Below, in pieces: positions 1,310 through 46,014 of a DNA stretch of 46,054 nucleotides; the stretch's first letter is position 1; every line of letters begins with the position of its first letter. Under the pieces are notes generated by a model. That model was not told the origin of the DNA. It made no database searches and saw only the letters and a list, made by a program, of their open reading frames with translations. This DNA is from Escherichia phage vB_EcoS_ACG-M12. The position numbers and the translations under genes were made by a program. The stretch is from the sequence record NC_019404.1, one strand, 5' to 3'.

Positions 1310-1379
1310 CACTTTTTGTTAAAACTCCATGGAGGGAGTTTGGCATAATAGCTTCATTGAAATGAGAGAGGGATTCAAA
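1305..1379 (+). promoter_or_regulatory. conserved intergenic cassette (box variant AATAGCACTTTTTGTTAAA; -10-like CATAAT)
   Basis: Box starts at 1305 and spans the stop of gene 1025..1309; leader CATTGAAATGAG precedes the ATG at 1380. Confidence 0.5.
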
Positions 1380-1985: not shown

Positions 1986-2116
1986 TTTACATCCATACGT
2001 ACTATACAGGCAAGTTTAATAGCGTTAAGCATGTTCACGTGCACGATAGCTACGATAGCGCAAAGGCGCAATGGCTTGTTCTAGGTGGTGACATTAATTC
2101 ATATAGAATCGCTTAA
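1982..2116 (+). CDS. hypothetical protein (44 aa)
   Basis: ATGA overlap with the previous ORF; stop TAA directly followed by the dyad box. Confidence 0.35.
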   Translation: MIYIHTYYTGKFNSVKHVHVHDSYDSAKAQWLVLGGDINSYRIA

Positions 2117-2190
2117 TAGCACGAATTGCTAAAACTGTATTGTGGTAATTTGATATAGTTACCCTATCAACAACGAGATGGAGCATAGAG
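2115..2190 (+). promoter_or_regulatory. conserved intergenic cassette (AATAGCACGAATTGCTAAA ... TATAGTTAC ... CAACAACGAG)
   Basis: Box at 2115-2133, TATAGTTAC at 2154-2162, gene ATG at 2191. Confidence 0.55.
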
Positions 2191-2625: not shown

Positions 2626-2763
2626 ATGGACAACTACGAATTACCAAGCCAGTGGGCCAAAAGGATGATGTATGAAGCTAAGGACGGCAACGAGTCTATG
2701 GCATACTTTGAGCTTATGAACCTATGGAAAGAGCGAGAAGATAAAAATAGCACGAATAGCTAA
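2626..2763 (+). CDS. hypothetical protein (45 aa) ending ...NSTNS
   Basis: ATG with SD AAGGAA; C-terminus is encoded by the dyad box itself (AAT AGC ACG AAT AGC TAA). Confidence 0.4.
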   Translation: MDNYELPSQWAKRMMYEAKDGNESMAYFELMNLWKEREDKNSTNS

Positions 2764-2823
2764 ACGCAGTCGCCACGGATGGCATATAATTACTTTACCA
2801 ACACAACGAAGAGAGATATAAGA
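2746..2823 (+). promoter_or_regulatory. conserved intergenic cassette (box inside the 3' end of gene 2626..2763; -10 TATAAT at 2785-2790)
   Basis: AATAGCACGAATAGCTAAA followed by GGCATATAATTAC and a leader before the ATG at 2824. Confidence 0.5.
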
Positions 2824-5969: not shown

Positions 5970-6038
5970 CACTAATTGCTAAACATTAATGCCATGGATG
6001 GTGTATAGTTACCTCACACAAGCGAAGGGAGATAAAAG
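5965..6038 (+). promoter_or_regulatory. conserved intergenic cassette (box overlaps the terL stop TAG; TATAGTTAC at 6004-6012)
   Basis: AATAGCACTAATTGCTAAA ... GTGTATAGTTACC ... AGCGAAGGGAG. Confidence 0.55.
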
Positions 6039-13121: not shown

Positions 13122-13124
13122 TTG

Positions 13125-13200
13125 ATAGCACTTTTTGTTAAAGACTAAAAATCAAAATGCTGTATAGTTCAATCATCGAAACGAAATGAGAAATTAAGAA
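13125..13200 (+). promoter_or_regulatory. conserved intergenic cassette (GATAGCACTTTTTGTTAAA ... TGTATAGTT ... CATCGAAACGAAATGAG)
   Basis: Precedes gene 13201. Confidence 0.5.
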
Positions 13201-14173: not shown

Positions 14174-17152
14174 ATGGCAACAAATGAATTAGCCGGAATC
14201 ACACTAGCCGTAGACGTCTCGCAGGTAGACAGGGGAACGCAATCCCTACAAAAGTTCAGACAGGCCAACCAACAGGCTGCATCTGGGATTAGTGAGTTCG
14301 TCAATGCTGAGCAGGTTGCTAAAAACCAGGCTAGAGATACCGCTCGCGCACTTGCTGAGCAACAGGCATCTTTAGCTAAATTGCAAACAGCTATTGATCC
14401 AACCGCTGCAAAGTTCCGCAAGCTGCAAGAGGCTGCTGTAGGTCTGGATAAGGCATTCGCGGCTGGAGTAGTTCCTGATGAGGAGTTTTTCCGATTAGGT
14501 GAAGCCCTTGAAACGCAGAACGCAAAACTTGCTCGTTCACGTGCGGCACTAACTGAGGAGGGTAGAGCGGCAGCTCAGGCCGCAAAAGATAAAGCAAAGG
14601 CAAAGGCTGAAGCTGATAGGTTCATTGCGTCACTTGAGCGCCAGGCTCAAGCGGCAACATTGACGCGCGAAGAGTATCTAAAGTTACAGGCTGCTCAGCT
14701 TGGCGTAAGTTCTCAGGCGGCACCTATTATTGACAGAATCGCCGATGCATCACAGAAGGCAAACACCCAGCTAATTGCTCAGAGTAAGGCTTTTCAGAAA
14801 TCAGGATTAAGCGCGGGTCAATACAAGAATGCAATTTCTCAGCTGCCAGCGCAGATTACTGATATTGGCACGTCGCTTGCTGGCGGCATTCCGATTTGGC
14901 TTATTGCAATTCAGCAAGGTGGGCAGATCAAGGATGCATTTGGCGGTATTGGTAACACATTTAGATTCGCGCTTGCAGCCTTAAACCCATTCAATGTAGC
15001 TGTTGGTGTTTTGGGTGGGGCGCTTGTAGCTCTTGGTGTTGGTGCGGCTCAGGCTGAAAGTGAATTCAGAGCATTAAACTCCGCAATTGCTTTCTCCAAC
15101 AACTCTACAATCGCATCAATTTCGCAGGTTAGAGAGTTGGTTAGCTCTGTTTCTGATGCAACAGGTGCCACCAGAGGACTTGTGACTAGCATCGCAACAA
15201 GCCTTATTGAGCAAGGGAACCTTACGCTGACGCAGATTGACAAGATTACTAAATCGACCGCAAGATGGGCGCAGTTGACAGGTAAGGATGCGAAGGAGAT
15301 TACTGGTTACTATAACCAGATTGCAAGCGACCCAATCCAGGGTTTAGTTGATTTGGATAAGCGCTTTAACTTCCTCACACAGGGGCAGTTGACGACAATC
15401 GAAAACCTGAGAAAGACAAAGGGAGAAGTTGAGGCCGTTACTGCTGCGATTGATATTTTCAGCAAGTCTCAGGAAGCCAACCTTAACGACATAGCTGCGC
15501 AGTTAACTCCGCTTGAGCTAGCCTGGAATGATTTCAGAAAGTACATCTCTGATATATGGGATGCAATTAGCCGTAGAACGGTTGGGGCTCTAAACCTGTT
15601 TGTTGACGTAATCGCCGGAACAATTGAGCAGATCAGGGTCTTCATTAATCAGGGTGATGCGCTGATTGGTGAATTCGTAATTAGCGCAACTCAGGCATTG
15701 CAGAACATTCCTGGTCTTGATGGCGTTGGTGATGATGTTATCAAGGGGCAGCAGAAGATTATCGATGCCGCCAAGAAGCAAAACCTTGAGCTAGAGAAGT
15801 CTATCAAGGAGCGCGATGCCAGAATCAGAGAGGGAGAGCTTGGTTACGTTACTCGCAGAGAAAATCAGAATACCAATGAGCAGTCAGGTACTGATGAGGA
15901 ATTTGCAAAAAGGAAGAAGGCGCTTCAGGATGAGCTTGATGCGATCAAGAAGAACAGGAAAGAAGAAAATAGTAGGGTTAAGGAGCAAAGAGATTTAACA
16001 ATTGGTTATGAATATGGCGTTCTGGCGCTTCAGGCTCAACTCAAGGCGCTTCAGGAAAACAGGGATATTGGCGCAGTAATAAGCAATGAGCGCAAGCAGT
16101 ATCTTCAGGAGGAGGCCAAATTCAGGATTCTTGAGCAGAGACAACTTGATGGCTCAATTACCAAAGAGCAAGCAAGACTTCTCATTGAAAAGGATAAAGT
16201 TCTTGAGTTAGCCAGACAGAAGGCTGAGCTAGGTGATCAGATTGTTTTGCAGGAGCGAGCTAATAAGTTAGCTGAAGATAACCGCAAGAAGATTCTTCAG
16301 ATTAACAATGAGGCAAGTAACATTGATTTGGGTGCTGGTTTATCATCTCGCGAGCAGCAGAGAGCCAAAGAGATTCAGGCTCTTCAATCCAATCAGGTTA
16401 ATGCTGGTGGTTCTGTTGATGATGTTGATTTTCAGCAATTACTGGAAGCAAGAAAGGAATACTACAAGCAGGAGGATAATCTTAGGTCAGACTGGCAATC
16501 CGGTGTAACATCCACTCTCGCCGACTTGACAGAGAAGTACACTGACTACAACCAGATTGCTAAGGACTTAACTGTTGCGGCATTCGATGGAATTACAGAA
16601 CAGATTACAAACCTTGTAACCACTGGTGAGACTAATTTCAGAGATTTCACAGCAAGCATCCTCAAAATGATTGCGAAGATTGCAACTCAGTTACTTTTGG
16701 TTAAGGCCATCGAATCAACATTGACTAGTTTTGGTGGTGGGGGAGGTAACGTGTTTGGCTCACTTGCATCTGCCATAGGTTTTGCTGGTGGCGGCTATAC
16801 TGGTGATGGTGGGAAGTATCAGCCAGCAGGAACGGTGCACCGTGGTGAGTTTGTATTCACAAAAGAAGCGACAAGCAGAATTGGCGTGAAAAACCTTTAC
16901 GCGCTGATGAAGGGTTATGCGAATGGCGGCGCTGTTGGTGGTCCTTCCGGTTATGCGAATGGTGGTTTGGTTTCTGGTGGAACTGATGTTAATGTTAGCG
17001 GCATCACTGTTAACGTAAATTCCGGTTTGGGTGGCGACTCAGAGCAAGCAAAAGCATTGCAGAGTGGCGTCAAGGCTATCGTAGCGGAAGAAATTGCTCA
17101 GTCTTTCCAGCAGGGTGGCAGGGCGTATGCCTATTTGAGAGGTTTTAACTAA
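14174..17152 (+). CDS. tail tape measure protein (992 aa)
   Basis: Largest tail gene after the chaperones; long Ala/Gln/Glu-rich coiled coil; Gly-rich C-terminal region. Confidence 0.8.
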   Translation: MATNELAGITLAVDVSQVDRGTQSLQKFRQANQQAASGISEFVNAEQVAKNQARDTARALAEQQASLAKLQTAIDPTAAKFRKLQEAAVGLDKAFAAGVVPDEEFFRLGEALETQNAKLARSRAALTEEGRAAAQAAKDKAKAKAEADRFIASLERQAQAATLTREEYLKLQAAQLGVSSQAAPIIDRIADASQKANTQLIAQSKAFQKSGLSAGQYKNAISQLPAQITDIGTSLAGGIPIWLIAIQQGGQIKDAFGGIGNTFRFALAALNPFNVAVGVLGGALVALGVGAAQAESEFRALNSAIAFSNNSTIASISQVRELVSSVSDATGATRGLVTSIATSLIEQGNLTLTQIDKITKSTARWAQLTGKDAKEITGYYNQIASDPIQGLVDLDKRFNFLTQGQLTTIENLRKTKGEVEAVTAAIDIFSKSQEANLNDIAAQLTPLELAWNDFRKYISDIWDAISRRTVGALNLFVDVIAGTIEQIRVFINQGDALIGEFVISATQALQNIPGLDGVGDDVIKGQQKIIDAAKKQNLELEKSIKERDARIREGELGYVTRRENQNTNEQSGTDEEFAKRKKALQDELDAIKKNRKEENSRVKEQRDLTIGYEYGVLALQAQLKALQENRDIGAVISNERKQYLQEEAKFRILEQRQLDGSITKEQARLLIEKDKVLELARQKAELGDQIVLQERANKLAEDNRKKILQINNEASNIDLGAGLSSREQQRAKEIQALQSNQVNAGGSVDDVDFQQLLEARKEYYKQEDNLRSDWQSGVTSTLADLTEKYTDYNQIAKDLTVAAFDGITEQITNLVTTGETNFRDFTASILKMIAKIATQLLLVKAIESTLTSFGGGGGNVFGSLASAIGFAGGGYTGDGGKYQPAGTVHRGEFVFTKEATSRIGVKNLYALMKGYANGGAVGGPSGYANGGLVSGGTDVNVSGITVNVNSGLGGDSEQAKALQSGVKAIVAEEIAQSFQQGGRAYAYLRGFN

Positions 17153-17223
17153 TAGCACTAAATGGTAAAGCCAAAAGGATTTGGCTTGCTATAATCAACT
17201 CATTAAAAGCATGAGGTGATAAA
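17151..17223 (+). promoter_or_regulatory. conserved intergenic cassette (AATAGCACTAAATGGTAAA ... TTGGCTTGCTATAATC)
   Basis: Box directly after the tape-measure stop; TGCTATAAT extended -10-like box at 17187-17195. Confidence 0.5.
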
Positions 17224-18089: not shown

Positions 18090-18845
18090 ATGTTAAGTCC
18101 AAAGTTTGAGAATCAGTTGCAAAGCCTTTTCCCAGGCGAGATTGTGACACTAATTCAGGTTGACGGGACCTCATTCGGAAGTCTCGTTTACAACTTCCAT
18201 AATGAGAACATATCTTACACACCTGAAGAAATCATGCTGGCCCAAATGAATGGCGATCCACTACCAGAGAAAACCATCACCTTCCGCGGCGAAGAGTATG
18301 GCCCAAGACCATTTGGTATCTCTGGTATCAATATGACTTCTGACGGCAAGGCTAACAAGGTCACGTTAACGGTATCAAACGTGGACCAGCGCATTAGCGC
18401 ATTGATTCGCACATATAACGGACTTGTTAAGGCAAAGGTTACTATCTGGATCACCACGCGCGATAACATCAATGAAGACGGAAGCATTGCTGACGGGGAC
18501 TATCGCAGATTTGTTTACTTCATTGAGCGACCAAAGCAAGTTGATTACAAAACCGCATCATTTGAGCTAAGCAGCCCGATGGATATGGACGGAATTTATA
18601 TTCCTGCACGTCTTGTTCAGTCCGTTTGCTATTGGTCGTCAAGGGGGTGGTATCGTAGCGGTAATGGTTGCGACTATGCTGGCAATCGTTATTTTGACAA
18701 GGATGACAATCCAGTGTCAGACCCTTCACTTGACTTCTGCGCCGGAACGGTAAATAGCTGTAAGATTAGGTTTGGTGAGAATAATCAGCTTTCATTTGGT
18801 GGGTGCGCAGCAGCGAGCCTTCAAGCTAAAGCTAATCAGAGTTAA
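18090..18845 (+). CDS. minor tail protein, lambda L-like (251 aa)
   Basis: C-terminal four-Cys cluster (CYWSS...C...C...C) as in the L family; position after the M-like gene. Confidence 0.6.
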   Translation: MLSPKFENQLQSLFPGEIVTLIQVDGTSFGSLVYNFHNENISYTPEEIMLAQMNGDPLPEKTITFRGEEYGPRPFGISGINMTSDGKANKVTLTVSNVDQRISALIRTYNGLVKAKVTIWITTRDNINEDGSIADGDYRRFVYFIERPKQVDYKTASFELSSPMDMDGIYIPARLVQSVCYWSSRGWYRSGNGCDYAGNRYFDKDDNPVSDPSLDFCAGTVNSCKIRFGENNQLSFGGCAAASLQAKANQS

Positions 18846-18911
18846 ATAGCACGAATTGCTAAAGACGATTTAAAAAGATGGGGTATAGTTACCCAATCGA
18901 AACGAGAGGAG
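18845..18911 (+). promoter_or_regulatory. conserved intergenic cassette (AATAGCACGAATTGCTAAA ... GGTATAGTTACC ... CAATCGAAACGAGAGGAG)
   Basis: Box at 18845-18863, TATAGTTAC at 18884-18892. Confidence 0.55.
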
Positions 18912-25356: not shown

Positions 25357-25436
25357 GTTCCTTAGAATGTGTGTTTCGTTTTGATGGAGTAATCATATCT
25401 TAACTGTTAGGTTTGTCTTTAGCTATTCGTGCTATT
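25357..25436 (-). promoter_or_regulatory. conserved intergenic cassette, minus orientation
   Basis: Reverse complement reads AATAGCACGAATAGCTAAA ... leader CCATCAAAACGAAAC before the lipoprotein gene. Confidence 0.45.
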
Positions 25437-25679: not shown

Positions 25680-25753
25680 CTTGTTGCTCCTTTTTAGTTT
25701 ACCTGGAAATGGTACATCACCCATGAGATTTGTCTTTAGCAATTAGTGCTATT
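25680..25753 (-). promoter_or_regulatory. conserved intergenic cassette, minus orientation
   Basis: Reverse complement of 25735-25753 reads AATAGCACTAATTGCTAAA; precedes gene 25419..25679. Confidence 0.45.
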
Positions 25754-26621: not shown

Positions 26622-27583
26622 CATTCAAAGTCTACACGCGAGAAGAGTTAAGCAACGAAGAGTACCACTCTGAAACTGATCACATCTCTGGCAGTTCACT
26701 AGTTGAGATTATCCAGGGTTCACCAGCAAAGTGGAAGTTCAAGCAGCTCAACAGTTGTAGCAAGGCTCTTAAGTTTGGCACATTAAGCCACTGCATGATT
26801 CTAGAACAAGATGTGTTCGATAAAGAATACCTTCGAGCAACAGACCTTGAAGCTATTGAGGGGTTAATTACAAGTCAGACCGCATTATCGGCAGCACTGA
26901 AAAAAGTTGGTGTAGCTGGCACGTCAGGGAAGGGCTATAGCGAGCTTGTAGAGATGATGTATCGCTCTGGTGAGGATTGGCCTATTAAATGGTTAATTGA
27001 GCAGCAGGAGAGCGCTCAGGCTCTTGTAGAGGGTAAGGAACTGGTAAGCGCAGCGGACTACGACAAAGTGGTAGCGATGCGCGAGGTTCTCTGCAACATT
27101 CCGGCATATGATAAGATTGTTAACAGCGAAACGGCGCAGAAAGAGTTATCAATCTTTGGTGAGATTCTCGGTGTAGGAGTGAAGATTCGAATTGATCACG
27201 TAGATGTAATTGATGGTGTTGTGATGATCAACGATTACAAGACGACGGCAGATGCAGGCCCTGAAGGATTCGGCAAATCGGCCTTCTCTCACGGATACCT
27301 GGCAAAAATGTCACTTCAGCGCGATCTGTTTGTTAAGGCATTTAACGAAAAGAGAAAGGTCGTAGTTGGCCTTCTGGCGCAGGAGAAGGTGGAACCATAC
27401 CTTCCTATGAGGTACATATTGACTGACGAGCAACTTCGCATTGGAAGGCTACAGTATATTGAAGCGCTAGCTACTTACAAGAAGTGCAAAGAGCTTGATA
27501 TTTGGCCTGGTTATTCAAATGGAATTACAGAGCAAGAACTGATGATTCCTGATTGGGCAATTAAGCAGTATAAAGAGATCTAA
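26618..27583 (+). CDS. PD-(D/E)XK recombination exonuclease (321 aa)
   Basis: IDHVDV...MINDYKTT catalytic D...D/E-x-K arrangement; directly upstream of Erf and SSB. Confidence 0.6.
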   Translation: MTFKVYTREELSNEEYHSETDHISGSSLVEIIQGSPAKWKFKQLNSCSKALKFGTLSHCMILEQDVFDKEYLRATDLEAIEGLITSQTALSAALKKVGVAGTSGKGYSELVEMMYRSGEDWPIKWLIEQQESAQALVEGKELVSAADYDKVVAMREVLCNIPAYDKIVNSETAQKELSIFGEILGVGVKIRIDHVDVIDGVVMINDYKTTADAGPEGFGKSAFSHGYLAKMSLQRDLFVKAFNEKRKVVVGLLAQEKVEPYLPMRYILTDEQLRIGRLQYIEALATYKKCKELDIWPGYSNGITEQELMIPDWAIKQYKEI

Positions 27584-27655
27584 ATAGCACGAATTGCTAA
27601 AAAAAATGGGATATCTGAGGTATAGTTATCCCATCAACAGCGAACGAGGTTAAAG
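27583..27655 (+). promoter_or_regulatory. conserved intergenic cassette (AATAGCACGAATTGCTAAA ... GGTATAGTTATCC ... CATCAACAGCGAACGAGG)
   Basis: Box at 27583-27601; TATAGTTA at 27621-27628. Confidence 0.55.
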
Positions 27656-29231: not shown

Positions 29232-29257
29232 TAAGGCCCCCTTCGGGGCCTTTTTTA
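29232..29257. terminator. bidirectional terminator between convergent genes
   Basis: AGGCCCCC-ttcg-GGGGCCT plus T6. Confidence 0.7.
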
Positions 29258-32074
29258 CGAAGCTGTATTTACCTGAAGATATGCACCATTAGTTGCACCA
29301 AACCATGCGTAAGCAGATCCGTAAGTTGTTGGGTTGTCATTTAAAATGAAATCACCCGCTCTAATTACGCACTTTGCTCCATATGTATCAGTGGGTCTTG
29401 CACTAAACCCATAGTCAACATATCTAAAACCAACCTTCGTTACGTTATCGTTAAGCGGGAAGATCCTTAAGAAGCTGGAATCTCTAAAGTCATTGTTCCT
29501 GAAAATTCCTCCTGTAAAGTTATCCATATCAAACATTGTTGTTAAACTTGAAGCAACAGTATTCATGAACTTGTTGCCTTCATATGTCGGAGCTACTACT
29601 TCATAGCCAACTCTTAGCTGAACAAATCCCCCATCAATAATATTGTCCTTGACTATTGGATATTGCCCGCCGATTGCTAAGCCACCAAACCCAGGTGTAA
29701 ATTTGCAACTATTATTACTAAATATAGTGCCAACCCACGCCTGATTTGTAAGGTATGGTGCCTTAGTGTCTGTCATGGTGTTCCCGGTGATAATCAATCC
29801 ATTCTTGGCCTGGATTCCCTCCTGGTAGCCCTGAATCGCTACGCCGCCACCAATCATAATGTTGCTGGATATAATAATGTTGCTCAACCCCTCATTAACA
29901 CCCCAATCACTTTCTGCATCATTTGTTATCAGTAAGTAGTGAGAAGAAGCCCTGCCAGTAGCGTCCGTAGTTATAATGCTTGTATTGCCTTTGCATATAA
30001 CATTGTTTGCCGCAAAAACCTCAACAAACATACCAGCACCTTCGTAGTAGTTATCCGTAACCGTTACGTTATTGCCAGCCGGGGTTATCCTTGACTGGAT
30101 AGATATTGGATAATAGAACTTGTTGGCGTGAGCGTAAGACCTTCGGCTTCCCTCGGATATTGCATAATCCTCCGCGAAAGTATGCCATGCCCTTCCTGAC
30201 TGTTTTGTTGTGTTTCCTATAAACTCTGAGTAGTCACAGTTTCTTGTGATTAAGCAGTAGTTAGCGTTGTATCTGAAGCTTGAATTTCTAAGAGATACGA
30301 ATGCATTAGGTAAGCCATTAAGAGCATCGGCATTAACAAAGGCCCTCGAGGCATTAACCTCCATACCCTCGATCACAACTGATGCGCATCCTTCAACCAT
30401 AAAACCAAACCAGTCTTCTCTTGGTTTATGCTCTGTATCCGTTGGTTGGATTGAGTAATCTGAAAAGTCAGTATTCCAGTTGAGTCCGCTAGCTTTAAAT
30501 GTGCAATATTTAAGCCCGAAAACAACCCTCTCGGGTGATGTGCTTCCAGAGATATCAATATCAACATCATTATTGGCAAAAATGTCAACAGTAAGTCCAT
30601 TGAGGAAGAATGCCGTTTGCCTTAACACTCTGTACTTATCATTGTACTGAACACCATCGGAGAATGAGACTTTCAGTCTTCCAGCGCTAATTCTTACCTT
30701 CCTGTTTGTATTGTGACCAAGGTTTATACATGCCATAACCGAGGCGTTTGATTCATTAACTCCAGACACATCATGACCAGCCCATTCGGTATGGATATCA
30801 TCAACACCTCCCGTAAACCTAACCCAGCAACCATTTTTACCTGGTGATGTCTCACCCGCTCCGCTAAGGAATCCTGGGAGCGTGGAATATGTACCATCAA
30901 ATGGAACTGTTGGGCTAAAGATGGTAACCCCATTGTGACTACTCTTGCTTACTGATGGATCCCAGTAAAACAAACCACCTCCAGAGTTTGCTCCAGAAAT
31001 ATAAGACCTGACATTTGCCAAGTTTCCATTCGTAGTTGGTTGCCGGATTAGTTCATAAATTGAATTAACTGAAGATAGCCCTAAATTACTCCTGGCAAGG
31101 CTTTTATCTTCAATATCAGAGAAATTCAATGATTTGTTGAAAGTCTCAGATTTTGAATAAACATCAAGTAAGCCCCTTACTCGCTGGGCGCTAGCTCCGC
31201 CAACCTGACTTCCTGATGCGACATAAAGCGCCTCTCTTGAATAGTAAGTTTTGCTTGGTGCCGTGCCAGTCTGAGTTAAATCAATCACCCTGTACGCATT
31301 ATCTGAGCCGGTAGATGCTGAAACTTGTATGTTCTTAACACCAGTAAGCCCCCTTGCTGACTTAACCTCAATCGTACAAAGTGTGCTATCGGAGTAGGTT
31401 GTATTTATCACCTCTGGAGCGTTGATCATTGCTGACTTTTGGCATAGGTATCTAGCCCCGGACTTGAAATCAAACGTATTCCAGTCAAGTTCTGTCAACT
31501 GAGGTGTATTCGAGCCACCAATACCAATATTGGCAAGAGTTACCAAAGTACCAGCGTCACCAGCATTATTAATTGCTGCAATTGTAGCGTCACGGGCAGC
31601 TGTTGTTGTGTTTCTTGCACTAACAGCAGTAGCAGCGCTATCTGCGGCGGCAATCTGGCTAGCTAAAGCATCCGCTGCTCCTTGCACTGACTGGCTTGCC
31701 AATTGCTCAAAGCGAGGCCAATCAAAAGAATCCTGACCAATGAAATCAATCAGGCTCTGAATGCTAGTTTCCCTACTCTGATAATAACGAAGTGTCTCCG
31801 CTACATTTTGAGCCAAACCCTGAACGCTAATCCCATCATGAGCAAGAATGGCATATCCAGTACCAGCAGGAACAGTTTCGCCATTTGGGTTATATACAGA
31901 CAATGAAGTGTCGCTGGTGATTTCAGAGATGGTGTAAATCTGCACAGGCTCTGTTTTGAATACAATTGTAGCACCAACACGGATTAGCGTTAGTGGCATG
32001 GTCCATTGAGTGCCAACACCAGTAACTTGACCGTTAGCTGCTAAACTGGCAGTTCCAGTATCATAAATTGCCAT
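29255..32074 (-). CDS. tail fibre/receptor-binding protein, possibly with a beta-helix domain (939 aa)
   Basis: N-terminus MAIYDTGTASLAANGQVTGVGTQW typical of fibre N-termini; Ala-rich shaft; Asn/Gly/Thr-rich C-terminal two-thirds; start at the ATG after GGAG. Confidence 0.6.
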   Translation of the reverse strand: MAIYDTGTASLAANGQVTGVGTQWTMPLTLIRVGATIVFKTEPVQIYTISEITSDTSLSVYNPNGETVPAGTGYAILAHDGISVQGLAQNVAETLRYYQSRETSIQSLIDFIGQDSFDWPRFEQLASQSVQGAADALASQIAAADSAATAVSARNTTTAARDATIAAINNAGDAGTLVTLANIGIGGSNTPQLTELDWNTFDFKSGARYLCQKSAMINAPEVINTTYSDSTLCTIEVKSARGLTGVKNIQVSASTGSDNAYRVIDLTQTGTAPSKTYYSREALYVASGSQVGGASAQRVRGLLDVYSKSETFNKSLNFSDIEDKSLARSNLGLSSVNSIYELIRQPTTNGNLANVRSYISGANSGGGLFYWDPSVSKSSHNGVTIFSPTVPFDGTYSTLPGFLSGAGETSPGKNGCWVRFTGGVDDIHTEWAGHDVSGVNESNASVMACINLGHNTNRKVRISAGRLKVSFSDGVQYNDKYRVLRQTAFFLNGLTVDIFANNDVDIDISGSTSPERVVFGLKYCTFKASGLNWNTDFSDYSIQPTDTEHKPREDWFGFMVEGCASVVIEGMEVNASRAFVNADALNGLPNAFVSLRNSSFRYNANYCLITRNCDYSEFIGNTTKQSGRAWHTFAEDYAISEGSRRSYAHANKFYYPISIQSRITPAGNNVTVTDNYYEGAGMFVEVFAANNVICKGNTSIITTDATGRASSHYLLITNDAESDWGVNEGLSNIIISSNIMIGGGVAIQGYQEGIQAKNGLIITGNTMTDTKAPYLTNQAWVGTIFSNNSCKFTPGFGGLAIGGQYPIVKDNIIDGGFVQLRVGYEVVAPTYEGNKFMNTVASSLTTMFDMDNFTGGIFRNNDFRDSSFLRIFPLNDNVTKVGFRYVDYGFSARPTDTYGAKCVIRAGDFILNDNPTTYGSAYAWFGATNGAYLQVNTAS

Positions 32075-32096
32075 TATGTAAAGTCTCCATTTGTAA

Positions 32097-32115
32097 AATA
32101 GCACGAATTGCTAAA
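32097..32115. promoter_or_regulatory. isolated dyad box AATAGCACGAATTGCTAAA at the 5' end of the tail fibre gene, without a downstream -10 or leader
   Basis: Only copy not followed by a TATAGTTAC box and leader; lies between a TACAAT-like element and the SD of the minus-strand fibre gene. Confidence 0.4.
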
Positions 32116-32140
32116 GTGGATTGTAGCATCTTTAGGGCAT

Positions 32141-32162
32141 AAAAAAACCTCCCGAAGGAGGT
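32141..32162 (-). terminator. rho-independent terminator for the minus-strand primase transcript
   Basis: Reverse complement reads ACCTCC-ttcg-GGAGGT plus T7. Confidence 0.65.
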
Positions 32163-33088
32163 TAGTTATTCAATAAATCACTTGCCTTATATATCTTCTT
32201 CCTTATTCCGCTCTTGAATGAGTTTTCATCATTTGGTATTACCACATCAAGATTGCGATCATCAGCAACGGCGAGTAAATCAAAATCATGACGAGTACAA
32301 GCGACGCGTAACTTGTAGTCTCTAAGCGCATAAGCAACCATTTCCATGTTGTAACTGGAGTAGCAAACAAGCACACACCGGTTGCCAGTAGCAAGATGAA
32401 CGCGAACACCATCAATCCAATTATCGACCAGATAAGAGTACTCATCATCCTTAAGGGAACCAATAACAGAAACAGATTGGCGAGAATAATCTTTTGCAGC
32501 ATAACTAACATCTCCTTCCTCATTGATAAACATTACATTGCACATTTCTTCTGATATACCGTCACTATAAGCCATGAAGCACGGTATTGCGTGTATTAAT
32601 TCACCGGATTTTGTCCTACCAACATCAAATCCAAACTCGCTATAAATACCCTCGTATGTACTTAGCGGGGTTGATTCTACTCTTTCCGTCCTTTCCAGTA
32701 TCTCTAAGCATCTTTCGTGGTCAATCTGCGCGCCCATCTTGTATGGTGATGTCCTCGATGCTCTTTTGTTTGCTTTAGCTACTATCTCAACTGGAACCAG
32801 ATTTAACCAGTCACCTAATACATTTATACACTCACTAAAAGACTCTCCTCTTAGTTTCTGCACCCACAAAATTCCATCGCCTGACCCACACTGGTTGCAA
32901 ATGATTCCACCATCCCCAGGTTCACTAACTTTATCAGTCCACCTGCTACGGTCATTACCGCCACAATACAAGCATGGTTGATGCTTCTTAGTTTTAAAGA
33001 AGTTTGGGTCTGCCCCGCAAATCTGAACCATTGCGTCAGCCCATAAACCTTTCATCTTTTGTAGTACTTCTTTCTTATCGTGATTCAT
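32162..33088 (-). CDS. DNA primase-like protein with N-terminal zinc-binding motif (308 aa)
   Basis: CLYCGG-x17-CNQCG zinc ribbon near the N-terminus; start at the ATG 5 nt after GGAGG. Confidence 0.45.
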   Translation of the reverse strand: MNHDKKEVLQKMKGLWADAMVQICGADPNFFKTKKHQPCLYCGGNDRSRWTDKVSEPGDGGIICNQCGSGDGILWVQKLRGESFSECINVLGDWLNLVPVEIVAKANKRASRTSPYKMGAQIDHERCLEILERTERVESTPLSTYEGIYSEFGFDVGRTKSGELIHAIPCFMAYSDGISEEMCNVMFINEEGDVSYAAKDYSRQSVSVIGSLKDDEYSYLVDNWIDGVRVHLATGNRCVLVCYSSYNMEMVAYALRDYKLRVACTRHDFDLLAVADDRNLDVVIPNDENSFKSGIRKKIYKASDLLNN

Positions 33089-33143
33089 ATGCACCTCCAT
33101 AAACAATAAAGGCACCATACATAATGTAGAGTGCCAATGTTTA

Positions 33144-33650
33144 TCAAATCGTGCTTTTTTTCTCTGCTTCTCTCTTTTTCTTATTCTCTTCTTTAATCTT
33201 ACGCCATGATCTGGCAGGCGGCTTTGTTGCTAACTCCTCTTTCTTAACAACTCTAAGCATTTCTCGACGGTCACAACGCAATGTTAAAGGCTTACCATTA
33301 CTATCAAATCGAAGGTCTGGACGAATGAAGCTAGCTCGATAACCCTCGCCTGTACGCTTGTACTTACCGTGTAATTTCTGCGCACCTTTAGCTGAAATCA
33401 TTCCGCGTTTACACCATTCAGAAACTACTGCATGTGTCACATTAGCGGCTTTTGCTAGCTTCGATTTACCACCATAAAAATCAAGTACAATCTCAAGTCG
33501 GGCGCGTAAACTAGCTCTCACCTCATCCTTCAAAGTGTAGTAGCCATAAGGTCGACTACGTTCTTTCTTGTCTTCACCGCGATGAGTTCCGTTATTACCA
33601 TTTAATGTGCGCTTGTCTACTTCACCAGTTGATGCCGCAATTCTCGTCAT
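33144..33650 (-). CDS. HTH DNA-binding protein with basic C-terminal tail (168 aa)
   Basis: LAKAANVTHAVVSEWCKRGMISAKGAQKL helix-turn-helix-like segment; Lys/Glu-rich tail; divergent from the helicase gene. Confidence 0.45.
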   Translation of the reverse strand: MTRIAASTGEVDKRTLNGNNGTHRGEDKKERSRPYGYYTLKDEVRASLRARLEIVLDFYGGKSKLAKAANVTHAVVSEWCKRGMISAKGAQKLHGKYKRTGEGYRASFIRPDLRFDSNGKPLTLRCDRREMLRVVKKEELATKPPARSWRKIKEENKKKREAEKKSTI

Positions 33651-33661
33651 TATCAATCTCC

Positions 33662-33750
33662 AATAGCACTTTTTGTTAAAAGTCGTTTTGATTTAGTGTT
33701 AGTATTGTACTCAACAAAACGCCACAACACAAATTAATAGGGCTTAACAA
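33662..33750 (+). promoter_or_regulatory. conserved intergenic cassette (AATAGCACTTTTTGTTAAA variant) in a divergent promoter region
   Basis: Box at 33662-33680; TAGTAT-like -10; precedes the helicase ATG at 33751. Confidence 0.45.
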
Positions 33751-35746: not shown

Positions 35747-36166
35747 ATGAAGATTACAGATAAAGAAGATTACATTGAGTTTTACCCGGGTGCTGTAAAA
35801 TCATGTCCAAAGGAGGATGACGAACAAATCTTTTGCTCTGATTGGGTTAAGTACCATTATCCGCAGATTGTTTACTGGCACACGATTAATGAAAATAAGA
35901 AGACCATAGGGCAAGCAAGAAAAGACCAGGCGAAAGGACTCCTTAAGGGCGTATCAGACTGCTTATTCCTGATACCTGAATCAATGCGAGGCAAATACCC
36001 TTTTGGAGCCATAGAGCTAAAGAGGGCAGGAAAAACTCAAGCAAGCCCTGTCAGCGATGAACAAAAGGTTTTCTTAAAAAGCGTAAGGGAATCAGGCGGT
36101 TTCTCTGCTGTAGCCTACGGTCGCGAAGGTTTTCTTGCAGCATTCAAAGAAATGATTTCAAAATAG
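35747..36166 (+). CDS. VRR-NUC domain nuclease (139 aa)
   Basis: D...E-x-K arrangement (SDCLF...GAIELKRAGKTQ...Q) characteristic of VRR-NUC as recalled; coupled to the helicase. Confidence 0.5.
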   Translation: MKITDKEDYIEFYPGAVKSCPKEDDEQIFCSDWVKYHYPQIVYWHTINENKKTIGQARKDQAKGLLKGVSDCLFLIPESMRGKYPFGAIELKRAGKTQASPVSDEQKVFLKSVRESGGFSAVAYGREGFLAAFKEMISK

Positions 36167-36242
36167 CACGAATTGCTAAAGAAGATTTTAAAGGATGGGG
36201 TATAGTTACTCCATCGAAACGAAACGCAGAGAGAGAAACAAA
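36162..36242 (+). promoter_or_regulatory. conserved intergenic cassette (AATAGCACGAATTGCTAAA ... GGTATAGTTACTCCATCGAAACGAAACG)
   Basis: Box overlaps the stop TAG of the VRR-NUC gene; TATAGTTAC at 36201-36209. Confidence 0.55.
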
Positions 36243-37016: not shown

Positions 37017-37207
37017 TTAATGCAACTTGTGTAAAAGCAAATGGTTCCTTTACTCTACTTGAAGATTACGAAATTATCTTTAATTCAGATGGTGCAATAA
37101 CAGTATTAAGCGATGATGGATGCTATTGGTTCGTTAGTTATCAAGGTGATGGGTATTACGGGTGTAGAGATTCTAATGGAAAAGAAGTTAGCTTCTTAGT
37201 AGAATAG
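37013..37207 (+). CDS. hypothetical small protein (64 aa) with YQGDGYY motif
   Basis: Shares SYQGDGYY with gene 40864 (AEYQGDGYY). Confidence 0.4.
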   Translation: MINATCVKANGSFTLLEDYEIIFNSDGAITVLSDDGCYWFVSYQGDGYYGCRDSNGKEVSFLVE

Positions 37208-37277
37208 CATTTTTTGTTAAAACTAAAATCCACGGATGGATTATATTAAACACATCAACAGCGCAGAGGATTGAGAT
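37203..37277 (+). promoter_or_regulatory. conserved intergenic cassette (AATAGCATTTTTTGTTAAA variant)
   Basis: Box overlaps the stop TAG of gene 37013; GGATTATATTAAACACATCAACAGCGCAGAGG. Confidence 0.45.
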
Positions 37278-37985: not shown

Positions 37986-39122
37986 ATGGCAACTGCAAAA
38001 ATTACCAACGAACAGCTTCTTGAAGAGCTGATTAACGGCATGACCAACAAGGCCATTGCAGAGAAGTACGGAATGAACATTCGCAATGTTGAGTTGCGTC
38101 GCAGTAAATTGGCGAAGCAGGGTGAATGGCATGGAAACCCAGGCATCAAGAAGCTAGTTCCTGACGGTTATTTGGTCAAAGGCACATCAACGATGATTGA
38201 TGCCGAAGGTAACGAAAAGCTGCGCTGGGTTAAAACATCCGTAGATAATGAGCGCCTTGAGGTTTTAATGGAGCAAGCCCGAGAAGCATTCTGCTCTGAT
38301 TTGCCAAAGGCTATTCCATCTGAATCACCGAATGTTAACTTTGATGACAACACGCTTGCGATGTATCCAGTCTTTGACTTGCACATTGGAGCAATGGCTC
38401 ACAAACATGAGTGTGGCGAAAACTACGACACAGAAACAGCAGAGAAGGTTATGAATGGTTTCTTTGACTACGCTGTAGATAAGGCTCCGAACTCAAAGAA
38501 TGCCGTGCTTGTTCTTGGTGGTGATTTCTTGCATTACGATTCATTAGAGGCAAAAACACCAGCGTCAGGCCATATCTTAGATTCTGACAGCCGTTACGCA
38601 AAGATTGTTTATGTCGCAATCCGTTCAGTGCGACGTGCAATTTCTAGAATGATGGAAAAGCATCAAGTTATTGATATTAAAGTAATAAGTGGAAACCACG
38701 ACGAGGCAGGGATGGTTTGGCTGCGCGCTGCGCTTGCTGCGTTTTATGAAGATGAACCGCGCGTAAATGTTGATGTTAGCCCAGCCGCAATGATGATGAC
38801 CAGCTTTGGAACTACGCTTATTGGATACACCCACGGGCATCAAATGCGAAAAGCAGATACGCGACTAACTGTTATGGCAACCGATTTTCGTAAGTTATTT
38901 GGTCAAAGTGAGTATGTTTACACACATAGTGGCCACTGGCATTCGCAGAAGATTACAGAAACAAACTTGGGTATTGATGAGGTTCATGGGCAGCTTGGAA
39001 GCCCTGACGCGTACTCAGCAAATGGCGGATGGCGCTCTCAACGTCAAGCGGCGGTTATTGTCTACCATAAAGAATTCGGTGAAGTTGGCCGCTTCATTTG
39101 TCGCCCTAAAATGTTTGGATAA
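37986..39122 (+). CDS. metallophosphoesterase (calcineurin-like) with N-terminal HTH-like domain (378 aa)
   Basis: DLHIG (DxH), GGDFLHYD (GDxxD), GNHDE (GNHD/E), later HGH and GHWH motifs; N-terminal NKAIAEKYGMNIRNVELRR helix-turn-helix-like. Confidence 0.6.
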   Translation: MATAKITNEQLLEELINGMTNKAIAEKYGMNIRNVELRRSKLAKQGEWHGNPGIKKLVPDGYLVKGTSTMIDAEGNEKLRWVKTSVDNERLEVLMEQAREAFCSDLPKAIPSESPNVNFDDNTLAMYPVFDLHIGAMAHKHECGENYDTETAEKVMNGFFDYAVDKAPNSKNAVLVLGGDFLHYDSLEAKTPASGHILDSDSRYAKIVYVAIRSVRRAISRMMEKHQVIDIKVISGNHDEAGMVWLRAALAAFYEDEPRVNVDVSPAAMMMTSFGTTLIGYTHGHQMRKADTRLTVMATDFRKLFGQSEYVYTHSGHWHSQKITETNLGIDEVHGQLGSPDAYSANGGWRSQRQAAVIVYHKEFGEVGRFICRPKMFG

Positions 39123-39193
39123 TAGCACATTTTGTTAAAACAGTAGCCGCGAAAGCGGCTATTATTGTTTTATACAAACGGGAGGGGATTTAA
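39121..39193 (+). promoter_or_regulatory. conserved intergenic cassette (AATAGCACATTTTGTTAAA variant) containing hairpin TAGCCGC-gaaa-GCGGCTA
   Basis: Precedes the HNH gene at 39194. Confidence 0.45.
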
Positions 39194-39689: not shown

Positions 39690-39764
39690 AATAGCACTTT
39701 TTGCCTAAAGCATGCCGTATAAATGCGGCATAATTACCACATCGAAACGAGATGAGGAATTGTA
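39690..39764 (+). promoter_or_regulatory. conserved intergenic cassette (AATAGCACTTTTTGCCTAAA ... GGCATAATTACCACATCGAAACGAG)
   Basis: Precedes gene 39765; contains hairpin ATGCCG...CGGCAT. Confidence 0.5.
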
Positions 39765-40240: not shown

Positions 40241-40795
40241 ATGACTAAATTATTTATCCTTAATGGCCCCGCTGGAGTTGGTAAGGATACTATAGCGGAT
40301 ATCATGGTTGAGACTGGTGTCGCCAAAGAAAAGGTATCATTCAAGTCACCAATGTTTAACGTTGCTAGAGGTATTCTTTCAATAGATGAATTCGATTGGT
40401 TTATTGAAAACTACAACAATCGCGACGAGAAGGAGAAACATCAGAAAATTCTAGGTGGAAAAAGCATTCGAGAGTTCATGATCTGGATTAGCGAGTCTGT
40501 AATGAAGCCAGTCTTTGGTGATGATGTTTTTGGTAAAAGGCTCGCCCAGTCACTTAGTGATGGTTGCTACATTTGCGCTGACGGTGGATTTGCTAGCGAG
40601 ATTAAGCCACTGATCGACGCTGGTGTTGAGGTCACGTTAATCAGATTGCATAGGGCGGGGCACACATTTGATGGCGATAGTCGCTCATACATTCACGGGG
40701 TGTGCGCAAGAGAAATTGATGTTCGTGTTGTTGGTGGTGATATTGATGGAACATCAGCATTGGTAAGGCACGTAATAAATAGCACTAATTGCTAA
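40241..40795 (+). CDS. P-loop kinase, dNMP-kinase-like (184 aa) ending ...NSTNC
   Basis: KLFILNGPAGVGKDTIADIM resembles the T4 gp1 dNMP kinase N-terminus (from memory); ATG directly after the HAD gene stop; C-terminus encoded by the dyad box. Confidence 0.5.
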   Translation: MTKLFILNGPAGVGKDTIADIMVETGVAKEKVSFKSPMFNVARGILSIDEFDWFIENYNNRDEKEKHQKILGGKSIREFMIWISESVMKPVFGDDVFGKRLAQSLSDGCYICADGGFASEIKPLIDAGVEVTLIRLHRAGHTFDGDSRSYIHGVCAREIDVRVVGGDIDGTSALVRHVINSTNC

Positions 40796-40863
40796 AGATA
40801 ATAATAAAAACTGAGTTATCATTAACACATCGAAACGAGATGAAACAAACGAGGAAACACAAG
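40778..40863 (+). promoter_or_regulatory. conserved intergenic cassette (AATAGCACTAATTGCTAAA ... CACATCGAAACGAG)
   Basis: Box forms the last codons of the kinase gene; leader precedes the ATG at 40864. Confidence 0.5.
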
Positions 40864-44761: not shown

Positions 44762-44832
44762 TTCTCATCTCCCGTCTCGATGGAAAGATAATGCCGTATC
44801 TCACATAAATGCTTTTAGCAATTCGTGCTATT
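44762..44832 (-). promoter_or_regulatory. conserved intergenic cassette, minus orientation
   Basis: Reverse complement of 44814-44832 reads AATAGCACGAATTGCTAAAAGC; leader CCATCGAGACGGGAG. Confidence 0.45.
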
Positions 44833-45995: not shown

Positions 45996-46014
45996 TTTAG
46001 CAAAAAGTGCTATT
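45996..46014 (-). promoter_or_regulatory. dyad box, minus orientation (reverse complement AATAGCACTTTTTGCTAAA), at the head of the terminal minus operon
   Basis: Followed in the minus direction by about 240 nt of GC-rich structured leader before the first small gene. Confidence 0.4.

Follow-up and report, generated by a model that had tools for sequence, protein, structure and literature searches.

Twenty copies of a short intergenic box are distributed through the Guelphvirus genome studied (46 kb; 99.4% identity to phage ECH1), and one of these, lying between the DNA primase and tail fibre genes, raises the question of what role a copy might serve when it is separated from the elements that accompany the other members of its family. 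Throughout, the window denotes the whole stretch of DNA analysed, the 46,054 nucleotides of record NC_019404.1. A preliminary description of the locus had placed the box at 32097-32115 without a downstream box and leader, which was confirmed by locating the 19-mer AATAGCACGAATTGCTAAA on the plus strand. Equally sound were its placement in the interval that separates the terminator of the primase gene (hairpin 32163-32146 with a T-tract) from the fibre ATG (32074), and its recognition of a TACAAT element upstream of the box on the minus strand, found at 32125..32120. The features of the locus are:

29255..32074, minus strand: tail fibre gene, 939 aa, ATG at 32074 (open reading frame list, ECH1 annotation)
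32085..32088, minus strand: fibre Shine-Dalgarno GGAG (from the sequence)
32097..32115, plus strand: isolated box, 19-mer AATAGCACGAATTGCTAAA, exact family consensus
32098-32117, plus strand: marbox 20-mer of the isolated box
32101-32115: 15-mer core GCACGAATTGCTAAA of the isolated box, exact match to the published MarA consensus GCANNWWNTGNNAAA
32112..32113, minus strand: predicted fibre mRNA start (A at 32112), 7-8 nt past the -10, placed from the position of that element
32120..32128, minus strand: extended -10 TGcTACAAT of the predicted fibre promoter (hexamer 32125..32120, TG 32128..32127)
32139..32163, minus strand: primase intrinsic terminator, AACCTCCTTCGGGAGGTT + T7 (terminator scan; kept in all relatives compared)
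32162..33088, minus strand: DNA primase gene (Pfam Zn_Ribbon_Prim), with its own co-oriented box promoter (box 33158..33140)

The description made no mention of a conflict of strands: the box is on the plus strand, and the primase and fibre genes are both on the minus strand, so that the isolated box runs counter to the fibre gene, whose ATG lies 23 nt away. The segment 32096-32116 reads AAATAGCACGAATTGCTAAAG.

The box family in the 46-kb genome

Searching the window with AATAGCACGAATTGCTAAA and allowing up to three mismatches returned 14 occurrences against an expectation of 0.00, and use of the broader consensus ATAGCACNNNTTGNTAAA established the true window-wide membership of the family as 20. 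All 19 members other than the isolated copy were co-oriented with their downstream gene, each being followed at box index 39 +/-1 by a -10-like hexamer (A at position 2, T at position 6) and then by the leader CCATCGAAACGA; at all 19 a -35 element was absent. These co-oriented class II box promoters have their boxes at:

1305..1323, plus strand
2115..2133, plus strand
2746..2764, plus strand
5965..5983, plus strand
13124..13142, plus strand
17151..17169, plus strand
18845..18863, plus strand
25418..25436, minus strand
25735..25753, minus strand
27583..27601, plus strand
33140..33158, minus strand (primase gene)
33662..33680, plus strand (class II site of the helicase promoter)
36162..36180, plus strand
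37203..37221, plus strand
39121..39139, plus strand
39690..39708, plus strand (right half degenerate)
40778..40796, plus strand
44814..44832, minus strand
45996..46014, minus strand (right genome end)

The box at 33662..33680 additionally lies backwards in the 5' leader of a divergent regulator gene, where it adjoins that gene's GGAG.

Among the 20 members in the 46 kb, the copy at 32097 is the only one that both runs against the genes beside it and has neither the -10 box nor the leader. At index 39-44 it is followed by GGCATA, in which G and A occupy the two critical -10 positions, and with no leader present the copy is isolated in the true sense; having no downstream plus-strand gene either, it stands outside the class II arrangement.

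Two further promoter assignments for the family box were rejected. Judged by the GG-N10-GC spacing of sigma54 promoters (TGGCAC-N5-TTGC), a -24/-12 element is 2 bp short, TAGCAC and TTGC being 3 nt apart rather than 5, the doublet is AG rather than GG, and the phased sigma70 -10 comes 22 nt later. Likewise, TTGCTA as a true -35 would be separated from the -10 by a 22-nt spacer, and no conservation was found at 17 nt.

Correspondence of the box with the marbox

MarA, SoxS and Rob are monomeric dual-HTH activators of enterobacteria that recognise an asymmetric site of roughly 20 bp. The MarA consensus published from ChIP-seq data is GCANNWWNTGNNAAA (PMC12052159), and the marbox consensus has been given as AYnGCACnnWnnRYYAAAYn, comprising recognition elements A (GCAC) and B (YAAA) (PMC9638938). 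Exact matches to GCANNWWNTGNNAAA numbered 19 in the window against an expectation of 1.08, and 17 of these 19 were members of the box family, the isolated copy (32101-32115) among them; T1 and TLS yielded 20 and 19 such matches, respectively, where ~0.6 were expected. With the older consensus AYNGCACNNWNNRYYAAAY, 17 matches at no more than one mismatch were recorded in the window (1.08 expected). The isolated box departs from the 19-mer marbox consensus at one position only, the final Y, and its minus-strand sequence TTTAGCAATTCGTGCTAT agrees at 14 of 19 positions with the mar operon's own reversed marbox.

Across the 19 sites the information profile proved to be asymmetric, with peaks at AATAGCAC and TTGnTAAA, and the maxima at GCAC and TAAA coincide with recognition elements A and B. 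This result bears directly on the dyad symmetry that had been the original reason for proposing an operator, and does not sustain it. Symmetry is confined to TA-CA/TG-TA, just 4-5 of the 8 conserved positions per half being symmetric, whereas the most conserved positions (C7, T11, A0-1 and A17-18) are asymmetric, and the asymmetric marbox consensus of MarA/SoxS/Rob accounts for every conserved position of the box. In the isolated copy TAGCA-N5-TGCTA does form a perfect 5+5 repeat; family-wide, there is variation at arm position 14 and asymmetry among the best-conserved flanking bases. By sequence the box is a consensus marbox, with a putative rather than an established occupant. Orientation matters at an asymmetric site of this kind, and the isolated copy is backwards.

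Class II activation by these regulators is associated with a forward marbox over the -35, centred at ~-41.5 (PMC10268841, PMC8811837, PMC9638938). At the co-oriented boxes 35 nt separate the G of GCAC from the -10, exactly as at micF of E. coli K-12, and this spacing places the centre of the site at ~-40.5 to -41.5 in the forward orientation. When class II sites were defined by a forward marbox 18 bp from the -10 hexamer and a -35 that is weak or missing, all 19 co-oriented boxes belonged to the class. These 19 thus share with micF-type promoters the consensus, orientation, overlap with the -35 position, absence of a -35, centre and 35-nt spacing, but differ in lying within a virulent phage genome at ~17x chance density; the isolated copy differs in being backwards and in missing a -10 at the right distance.

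A 2024 study of TLS described 21-nt intergenic direct repeats (DR1-DR18; consensus aaATAGCACnnnTTGnTAAAA), also reported for T1, Rtp and Rogue1, that lie along the direction of transcription ~76 nt 5' of start codons, and left their function open between stoperator, enhancer site and UP element (PMC11447400). The direct repeats of T1 and TLS were confirmed here. The window box matches aaATAGCACnnnTTGnTAAAA, with a core identical to those of DR2, DR5, DR13 and DR15, and the other 19 window copies obey the rule of direction and ~76 nt, from which the isolated copy departs in being reversed and 23 nt from its ATG; a connection with the marbox is not drawn in that study (PMC11447400). The TLS authors' analogy with the stoperators of mycobacteriophage L5 (PMC11447400) holds in that both comprise many short, asymmetric intergenic sites of consistent orientation. 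However, the L5 sites silence the prophage by blocking elongation and have no fixed phasing to a -10, whereas the T1-like phages are virulent and their boxes are phased to the -10 to the base pair. T1-like phages encode neither RNA polymerase nor sigma factor and have only ~3 ordinary sigma70 promoters (PMC11447400), and a literature search returned no transcription-start or binding data for these phages, and no link between them and the marbox, MarA, SoxS or Rob.

The predicted fibre promoter and its conservation

On the minus strand TACAAT is preceded by TG, which the preliminary description had not recorded, and it can therefore be regarded as part of an extended -10 (gaTGcTACAAT). The putative fibre promoter TGcTACAAT conforms to the extended -10 sigma70 pattern TGnTAnnnT, for which no -35 is needed, and it has none, that position being occupied by the T-tract of the terminator. 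The gap of 7 nt between the -10 and the predicted start is likewise present at micF, the start of which is known. Because the box begins 4 nt past the extended -10, it would cover ~-5 to +15 of the predicted fibre transcript, with the marbox 20-mer centred at ~+5. Another candidate for the extended -10 of the fibre gene, TGcTATTTT with the box's own TGCTAT, was rejected as unconserved beyond the Braunvirinae (TAAACA, TATCAA, TATTAA).

Conservation of the primase-to-fibre spacer was assessed in 18 Drexlerviridae from at least six lineages, a set to which a primase-based search for related loci, returning nine close relatives, contributed no additional member. The order of elements in these relatives was terminator, TGnTAnAnT, 4 nt (5 in T1), reversed box, variable stretch, Shine-Dalgarno sequence and ATG. 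The -10 bases T, G, T, A, A and T were invariant or nearly so in all 18, with variation at the 'n' positions, and the box was kept in 15 of the 18, backwards every time. It was absent from the spacers of Rogue1, Sf12 and TLS (three of the 18 relatives compared), each of which retained the promoter, and the fibre-side box is therefore dispensable. Between the -10 and the box the spacer was fixed in length and varied in sequence (CCAC, GCAC, GCGC, TTAT, GGCC, GCGT). Among eight lineage representatives, mean pairwise identity reached 0.86 in the box and 0.80 in the -10, compared with 0.31-0.55 in the flanks, and in MM01 the box had changed from the GAA to the TTT subtype while still fitting the consensus at every position. 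The constant orientation of the box could stem from common descent rather than from selection. A second reversed box was found in both T1 and TLS, within the -35/-10 spacer of the capsid-gene promoter.

Candidate roles of the reversed box

The initial suggestion of an operator acting on the fibre gene is favoured by geometry, the box lying 4 nt past the conserved extended -10 and over the predicted start, and by the islands of conservation, and in that form it survives the loss of its dyad rationale. The interpretation to which we incline, at a little under an even chance, is that the isolated copy may act as a repressing or dampening operator on the fibre promoter; the fibre transcription start, the binding protein and the negative effect are all features that we infer from the DNA. 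On this interpretation, a factor bound at the 19 forward marboxes, each situated over a missing -35 and centred at ~-41 of a good -10, would bring about class II activation, and the fibre gene would be driven by its extended -10 promoter directly after the primase terminator. A protein on the reversed site would occupy ~-5 to +15 of the fibre promoter and, since that region lies inside the open-complex footprint of RNA polymerase, its binding should hinder fibre initiation. The factor activating the other 19 promoters would in this way dampen or time fibre expression, as do MarA, SoxS and Rob at rob, pbpG, purA and hdeA.

Host MarA, SoxS and Rob are favoured as the binding proteins because the phage encodes no AraC-family protein. 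Tblastn searches of the window for homologues with MarA, SoxS and Rob N-terminal domain sequences, together with a small HMM, gave only noise. A faint match in the C-terminus of the DUF3987 protein was unsupported by Pfam or PDB searches, and the two small proteins at 42251-42586 and 44245-44598, annotated 'HTH' in T1, had no Pfam or PDB match and were not mutual paralogues.

The marboxes of rob and purA are reportedly backward (Schneiders et al.), an orientation that the isolated copy shares. At pbpG, repression is exerted by a marbox in the core-promoter spacer (PMC12052159); purA and hdeA figure as precedents for marbox repression among the citations of that paper (PMC12052159), and rob does so through the title of McMurry & Levy 2010 as cited in PMC3709825. 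At ~-5..+15 of the predicted start, the reversed 20-mer falls within the -35..+25 range that serves as the criterion in PMC12052159. The isolated copy resembles the sites at rob, pbpG, purA and hdeA in lying within the polymerase footprint of an activator-independent sigma70 promoter, but theirs are over the -35 or the spacer, whereas the isolated copy is past the -10 and over the predicted start; the rob/pbpG layout is nearer to that of the T1 and TLS capsid-promoter box, in the -35/-10 spacer, than to that of the fibre box.

The sign of regulation is uncertain, reversed marboxes at flgBP2 and yadG being activating, the latter in a class II position. Most Rob is sequestered when cells are not under stress, and activation of the MarA type reaches just 2-4-fold, which together seem weak for a virulent phage; there is also no obvious reason for the activator of the other promoters to repress a structural gene. 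Activation of the fibre gene by the box in class I or class II mode was rejected, as the predicted starts would lie inside the open reading frame.

A broader proposal, which we regard as possible while leaning somewhat against it, is that transcription in the Drexlerviridae depends mostly on the host MarA/SoxS/Rob regulon, with ~19 optimised micF-type class II promoters per genome and a backward fibre marbox (joined in T1 and TLS by one at the capsid promoter) as a negative or modulating input. Were this so, the function of the 21-nt repeats would be explained, phage expression and virion composition would be linked to the antibiotic, oxidative and bile stress that the host cell experiences, and the backward fibre copy would become the first predicted negative target of the MarA/SoxS/Rob circuit in a phage. 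That copy would also provide a lead on the control of fibre dosage, and the presence of a marbox in exact class II register provides a concrete and cheaply testable hypothesis for transcription control in T1-like phages. The latter often occur as contaminants in laboratories and industry and are also therapy candidates; should the stress regulators of antibiotic resistance also drive phage promoters, this would be relevant to combinations of phage and antibiotic.

The same operator geometry could be served by a protein of the phage itself, a reading close to that of the preliminary description and one that we consider unlikely, though deserving of weight. The candidate is:

33159..33650, minus strand: Cro-like single-HTH regulator, T1 gp23 homologue (weak Pfam Cro/YdaS/CI HTH matches; phrog_2856)

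This highly conserved regulator, the gene of which is bracketed by boxes at 33140-33158 (minus) and 33662-33680 (plus), could be the true binding protein in place of a host factor. No PDB match was obtained by sequence; its AF2 model (pLDDT 86.8) matched the folds of all-alpha Cro and C-proteins (TM 0.70 on the target). Bound as a dimer to the pseudo-dyad TAGCA-N5-TGCTA, it would activate from -42 and act as a repressor at the fibre start. Consistent with this, the 5+5 inverted repeat is centred at index 9, equivalent to -42, the regulator is conserved family-wide with a fold like those of all-alpha Cro proteins and of controller C-proteins, which serve as activators and repressors alike, the box lying backwards in the regulator's own leader suggests autoregulation, and one of the only three sigma70 promoters of TLS serves the regulator gene, as would suit an early activator. 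There is a parallel, moreover, in lambda CI (OR2, PRM/PR), phi29 p4 and the R-M controller C-proteins, where one protein activates from ~-42 and represses over the core promoter, and a Cro/C-protein-like HTH is encoded by this phage. Their sites, however, are two-fold symmetric and dimer-bound, whereas the box, with C7, T11, A0-1 and A17-18 asymmetric and right-arm position 14 variable (as also in the TLS logo), fits a monomeric dual-HTH protein. That a dimer operator should match both marbox consensuses and the micF spacing by chance is very unlikely, a symmetric dimer has no need of the strict orientation seen at 19 of 19 promoters, and a different inverted repeat flanking the regulator's own promoter could be its real operator. 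In addition, the box is invariant over subfamilies in which the regulators are only ~50-65% identical, so that a conserved host protein fits better.

It is more doubtful that the box is a relic with no regulatory role, either the marbox half of a former plus-strand promoter or a remnant of module recombination, transmitted together with the terminator and the conserved N-terminal part of the fibre gene. The fibre genes are mosaic, relatives sharing only the N-terminal part and the upstream region, the three relatives without a box retain the promoter, and boxes at gene borders could be homology patches resembling the T4-type regulatory cassettes described in PMC2839356. A relic would hardly be expected, however, to be conserved so far above its immediate flanks (0.86 vs 0.31-0.55), to keep a fixed distance from the -10 across a spacer of varied sequence, or to switch subtype with all consensus positions intact, as in MM01, and the window copy is a perfect, undecayed consensus.

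As a perfect forward site on the plus strand, the marbox might serve a weak class II promoter with CATAAA or TATAAA at index 41-46, in the complement of the terminator T-tract, yielding antisense RNA over the primase 3' end or interfering with the convergent fibre promoter. Although GGTATAAAAAAA (TATAAA, 5/6) is present there in several relatives, this appears highly improbable: the hexamer is 2 bp out of a register that is otherwise invariant and has no T at position 6, a base found in all 19 real promoters, a 15-nt insertion in T1 displaces the A-tract to leave TACCTG at index 39-44, there is neither leader nor downstream open reading frame, and the start would land in the terminator stem.

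By analogy with MarA at flgBP2, where a reversed marbox at -30..-16 in the core promoter activates by distorting base pairs (PMC12781870), the backward marbox might conceivably activate a fibre promoter in need of help for lack of a -35, by bending or distorting DNA at the -10 and discriminator. The flgBP2 site is upstream of the -10, with its GCAC end adjoining, whereas the fibre box is downstream with its AAA end proximal and over +1 to +15, where a bound protein would clash with RNA polymerase; with the promoter also kept without the box in Rogue1, Sf12 and TLS, such activation seems very unlikely.

Least credible is a role at the RNA level, in which a 5' hairpin, UAGCA-N5-UGCUA, would stabilise the fibre mRNA or modulate its translation, for although the 19-mer by itself has a folding energy of -3.8 kcal/mol (z = -3.95) and lies at the extreme 5' end of the predicted transcript, structure in the whole leader equals that of shuffled sequences (z = -0.03), the conserved positions outside the stem are left unexplained, and the hairpin is lost in the MM01 and 12210I variants (0 kcal/mol) with no compensatory changes.

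A family of boxes with the features of marboxes

The window is a complete T1-like siphovirus genome (Drexlerviridae, Braunvirinae, Guelphvirus) of 46,054 bp, equal in length to that of Escherichia virus ECH1 (MN164484.2) and 99.4% identical to it over the 4-kb stretch compared (30000-34000). A search with the 19-mer AATAGCACGAATTGCTAAA, the isolated box at 32097-32115 on the plus strand, detected 14 copies at up to three mismatches against 0.00 expected from shuffles, and the broader family consensus ATAGCACNNNTTGNTAAA brought the count of genuine members to 20. Nineteen of these are co-oriented with the downstream gene, and each carries a -10-like hexamer (TATAGT, TATAAT, CATAAT or similar) at box index 39 ± 1, with A at hexamer position 2 and T at position 6 constant throughout, followed by a conserved leader CCATCGAAACGA, a Shine-Dalgarno sequence and ATG. 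The remaining member is the isolated box, the sole orphan and the sole copy opposing its neighbour genes: as the preliminary description had stated, it lacks the downstream -10 box and leader, index 39-44 reading GGCATA and the plus strand passing directly into the primase terminator's complement.

In 2024, a re-annotation of phage TLS recorded a 21-nt direct repeat (aaATAGCACnnnTTGnTAAAA) with 21 copies (18 intergenic), which are described as running "in the direction of transcription" some 76 nt upstream of start codons and as present also in T1, Rtp and Rogue1; no function was assigned, and only three ordinary sigma70 promoters were reported in TLS, one of them serving the regulator gene. 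A literature search found no transcription-start or binding studies on any T1-like phage.

An operator role for the isolated box had initially been argued from its dyad-symmetric core. Although TAGCA-N5-TGCTA is present as a 5+5 inverted repeat, the 19 promoter copies are not conserved symmetrically: the strongest left-hand block is AATAGCAC, the strongest right-hand one TTGnTAAA, and the highly conserved C7, T11, A0-1 and A17-18 have no symmetric partners; control of fibre expression is still plausible, but symmetry provides no support for it. The marbox instead explains all the conserved positions; it is a non-palindromic site for MarA, SoxS and Rob (in Klebsiella and Salmonella, RamA), activators that are monomeric and carry two HTH motifs. 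The MarA ChIP-seq consensus 5'-GCANNWWNTGNNAAA-3' has been described as "not a palindrome" and as having "a specific orientation" (PMC12052159). Exact matches to it numbered 19 in the window against 1.08 expected, 17 of them box-family members including 32101-32115, and 20 in T1 and 19 in TLS against approximately 0.6 expected. An older consensus, AYnGCACnnWnnRYYAAAY, reportedly that of Martin et al. in 1999, gave 17 matches in the window at up to one mismatch, again against 1.08 expected. The two information peaks of the family coincide with marbox recognition elements A (GCAC) and B (CAAA/YAAA) (PMC9638938). The minus-strand reading of the fibre box agrees at 14 of 19 positions with the mar operon's own marbox, GATTTAGCAAAACGTGGCAT, which is reversed.

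Class II marbox promoters carry a forward site overlapping the -35 position and clustered near -41, the micF marbox being centred at -41.5, and have no recognisable -35 (PMC10268841, PMC8811837, PMC9638938). In the phage promoters the marbox 20-mer occupies index 1-20 and the -10 begins at index 39, leaving a gap of 18 bp, so that the forward site is centred at about -40.5 to -41.5 with no -35. The E. coli K-12 micF promoter, with its annotated start, served as the positive control: the start of its -10 (TAGAAT) lies 35 nt from the G of GCAC, a distance identical to that at the 19 co-oriented phage boxes. By sequence and register these boxes look like micF-type class II marbox promoters. More broadly, the repeats of T1-like phages, so far without explanation, appear to form a set of such promoters, a link for which the literature search found no prior paper. 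Two further GCANNWWNTGNNAAA matches outside the family (37022-37036 and 38837-38851, plus strand) have no phased -10 and approximate the number expected by chance.

Several minor features of the box promoters were recorded. A leader motif, (C)CATCGAAACGA, lies around 6-18 nt past each box-linked -10 (e.g. 36207-36222 and 18890-18905), is conserved at the predicted transcription start in most of these promoters, and occurs also in T1 and TLS. Hairpin potential around or just before the -10 was significant (z < -2) in six of the 19:

36184-36215, hairpin-potential region
18867-18897, hairpin-potential region
27605-27632, hairpin-potential region
33137-33112, minus strand, hairpin-potential region
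39140-39170, hairpin-potential region
39709-39735, hairpin-potential region

The example at 36163, GATGGGGTA-TAGT-TACTCCATC, places the -10 in the loop (-13.2 kcal/mol, z = -4.5). At boxes 39122 and 39691 terminator and promoter overlap, because a terminator-like GC-rich hairpin plus T-rich run lies within the 18-bp marbox-to--10 gap. The annotated starts of ECH1_40 (25724) and ECH1_53 (36195) are upstream of the box-predicted transcription starts, and a better fit is given by the in-frame ATGs at 25679 and 36243, each with a Shine-Dalgarno sequence:

25679-25724, ECH1_40 start-codon region
36195-36243, ECH1_53 start-codon region

The reversed box at the predicted fibre promoter

The isolated box is located in an 87-bp spacer separating two minus-strand genes:

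32162-33088, minus strand, DNA primase gene
32163-32146, minus strand, primase terminator hairpin, with a T-tract after it (terminator scan)
29255-32074, minus strand, tail fibre gene (939 aa)

Along the minus strand, the primase stop is followed by the terminator, gaTGcTACAAT, CCAC, the reversed box, TTACAAAT, GGAG, ten nucleotides and ATG, an arrangement that bears out the originally described position between terminator and fibre start, downstream of TACAAT. Relative to the fibre gene the box is a backward marbox beginning 4 nt past the extended -10 TGcTACAAT, with the terminator T-tract occupying the -35 position. The usual 7-nt gap, which is also that of micF, sets the predicted fibre transcription start at the A at 32112, and the marbox 20-mer then spans approximately -5 to +15, with its centre near +5. 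Class II or class I activation of the fibre gene from this box was rejected, since the start would land inside the ORF. The most fitting classification is a backward marbox across the predicted start of a conserved extended -10 fibre promoter, a phage-borne site of a known kind.

A protein bound at -5 to +15 would fall inside the RNA polymerase open-complex footprint, so that steric repression of the fibre promoter would be the straightforward prediction. The sign of regulation is not certain: at the sigma28 promoter flgBP2, a reversed marbox at -30 to -16 brings about activation through distorted base pairing (PMC12781870). The flgBP2 site lies upstream of the -10, whereas the phage box lies over the predicted start.

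Conservation of promoter and box among relatives

The primase-to-fibre spacer was compared in 18 Drexlerviridae (Braunvirinae, Rogunavirinae, Tunavirinae (T1), Tempevirinae (TLS), Nouzillyvirus and Vilniusvirus, the last including one Klebsiella phage). The T, G, T, A, A and T of the extended -10 TGnTAnAnT were invariant or nearly so in all 18 while the 'n' positions varied, a pattern that marks a promoter under selection. The box was present in 15 of the 18, backwards in every case and 4 nt from the -10 (5 in T1), although those four nucleotides varied (CCAC, GCAC, GCGC, TTAT, GGCC, GCGT). Pairwise identity among eight lineage representatives averaged 0.86 in the box and 0.80 in the -10, against 0.31 in the spacer between them, 0.44 from box to Shine-Dalgarno and 0.55 from terminator to -10. 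In phage MM01 the box has switched from the GAA to the TTT subtype (CATTTTGT) with every consensus base kept, and this points to selection on box function rather than identity. The box is missing from Rogue1 and Sf12, where the leader is 13 nt shorter, and from TLS, which carries TTGCAT-17-CATAAT; since all three retain a promoter, the promoter would be the ancestral constant and the box a facultative add-on, as expected of an operator. Two records labelled 'Pseudomonas phage PsgS01F' (PP134917.1) and 'Campylobacter phage A110b' (MG065688.1) share 83-91% identity with the coliphage region, and both the marbox and the promoter occur in them too; their host labels look doubtful.

A reversed box was also located just upstream of the major capsid gene in T1 (15068-15086) and TLS (direct repeat DR7):

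15062-15121, T1 reversed-box capsid promoter region
15012-15069, TLS reversed-box capsid promoter region

In each case the box fills the -35/-10 spacer of a sigma70 promoter (T1, TTGACG-16-TATTAT; TLS, TTGAAC-16-TATATT), the predicted start falling in the left arm of the next terminator hairpin. DR7 is tabulated as 'neg' in TLS, contradicting the statement in the paper's text that all repeats follow transcription. By way of contrast, the window's major capsid gene (9505-10449) is preceded, within 9400-9505, by a terminator and then an ordinary sigma70 promoter, TTGCGT-16-TATAAT, with no box. Reversed boxes recur, then, on predicted activator-independent structural-gene promoters, overlapping core elements, and the capsid case is a second example pointing the same way as the fibre box.

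Candidate binding proteins and other readings

No AraC-family protein encoded in the window was found by tblastn and a small HMM search (best E 0.2-0.4). The product of 42590-44173 (minus strand) belongs to DUF3987 by Pfam (E = 1e-40), its annotation being 'DNA helicase' in ECH1 and 'putative ATPase' in T1; a MarA-like reading of its C-terminus was discarded, the faint tblastn alignment (E = 0.44) being unsupported by Pfam or PDB searches.

Host MarA, SoxS and Rob are favoured as candidate binders because the match to an asymmetric consensus and to micF spacing is too exact for coincidence. The serious if rather unlikely rival is the phage's own well-conserved Cro-like single-HTH regulator (a T1 gp23 homologue), whose gene is bracketed by two boxes, one of them backwards in its own leader. 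Its AF2 model (pLDDT 86.8) best resembled all-alpha Cro and restriction-modification controller proteins, with weak E-values and a TM of 0.70 on a small target. Against it, such regulators have diverged to around 50-65% identity across subfamilies while the box is invariant, and a symmetric dimer would require neither the asymmetry nor the strict orientation of the box, both of which argue for the host proteins.

An RNA hairpin at the 5' end of the fibre mRNA is a weak alternative: it amounts to only -3.8 kcal/mol, MM01 and 12210I have lost it with no compensating change, and the whole fibre leader is unremarkable in structure (z = -0.03). A relic, or a patch left by recombination, would leave the conservation island and fixed spacing unexplained. 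A forward, antisense class II promoter fails, the only plus-strand -10-like hexamer, CATAAA, being 2 bp off register, lacking the final T and displaced in T1.

In the divergent region between regulator and helicase genes (33650-33751; T1 counterpart 36431-36525), two -10 elements overlap, TAGTAT on the plus strand and TACAAT on the minus, flanked by the inverted repeat CGTTTTG...CAAAACG (T1: AACGTTTAC...GTAAACGTT), a candidate for the Cro-like regulator's own operator. The 5' leader of the regulator gene contains the helicase marbox in backward orientation, directly next to the GGAG of that gene.
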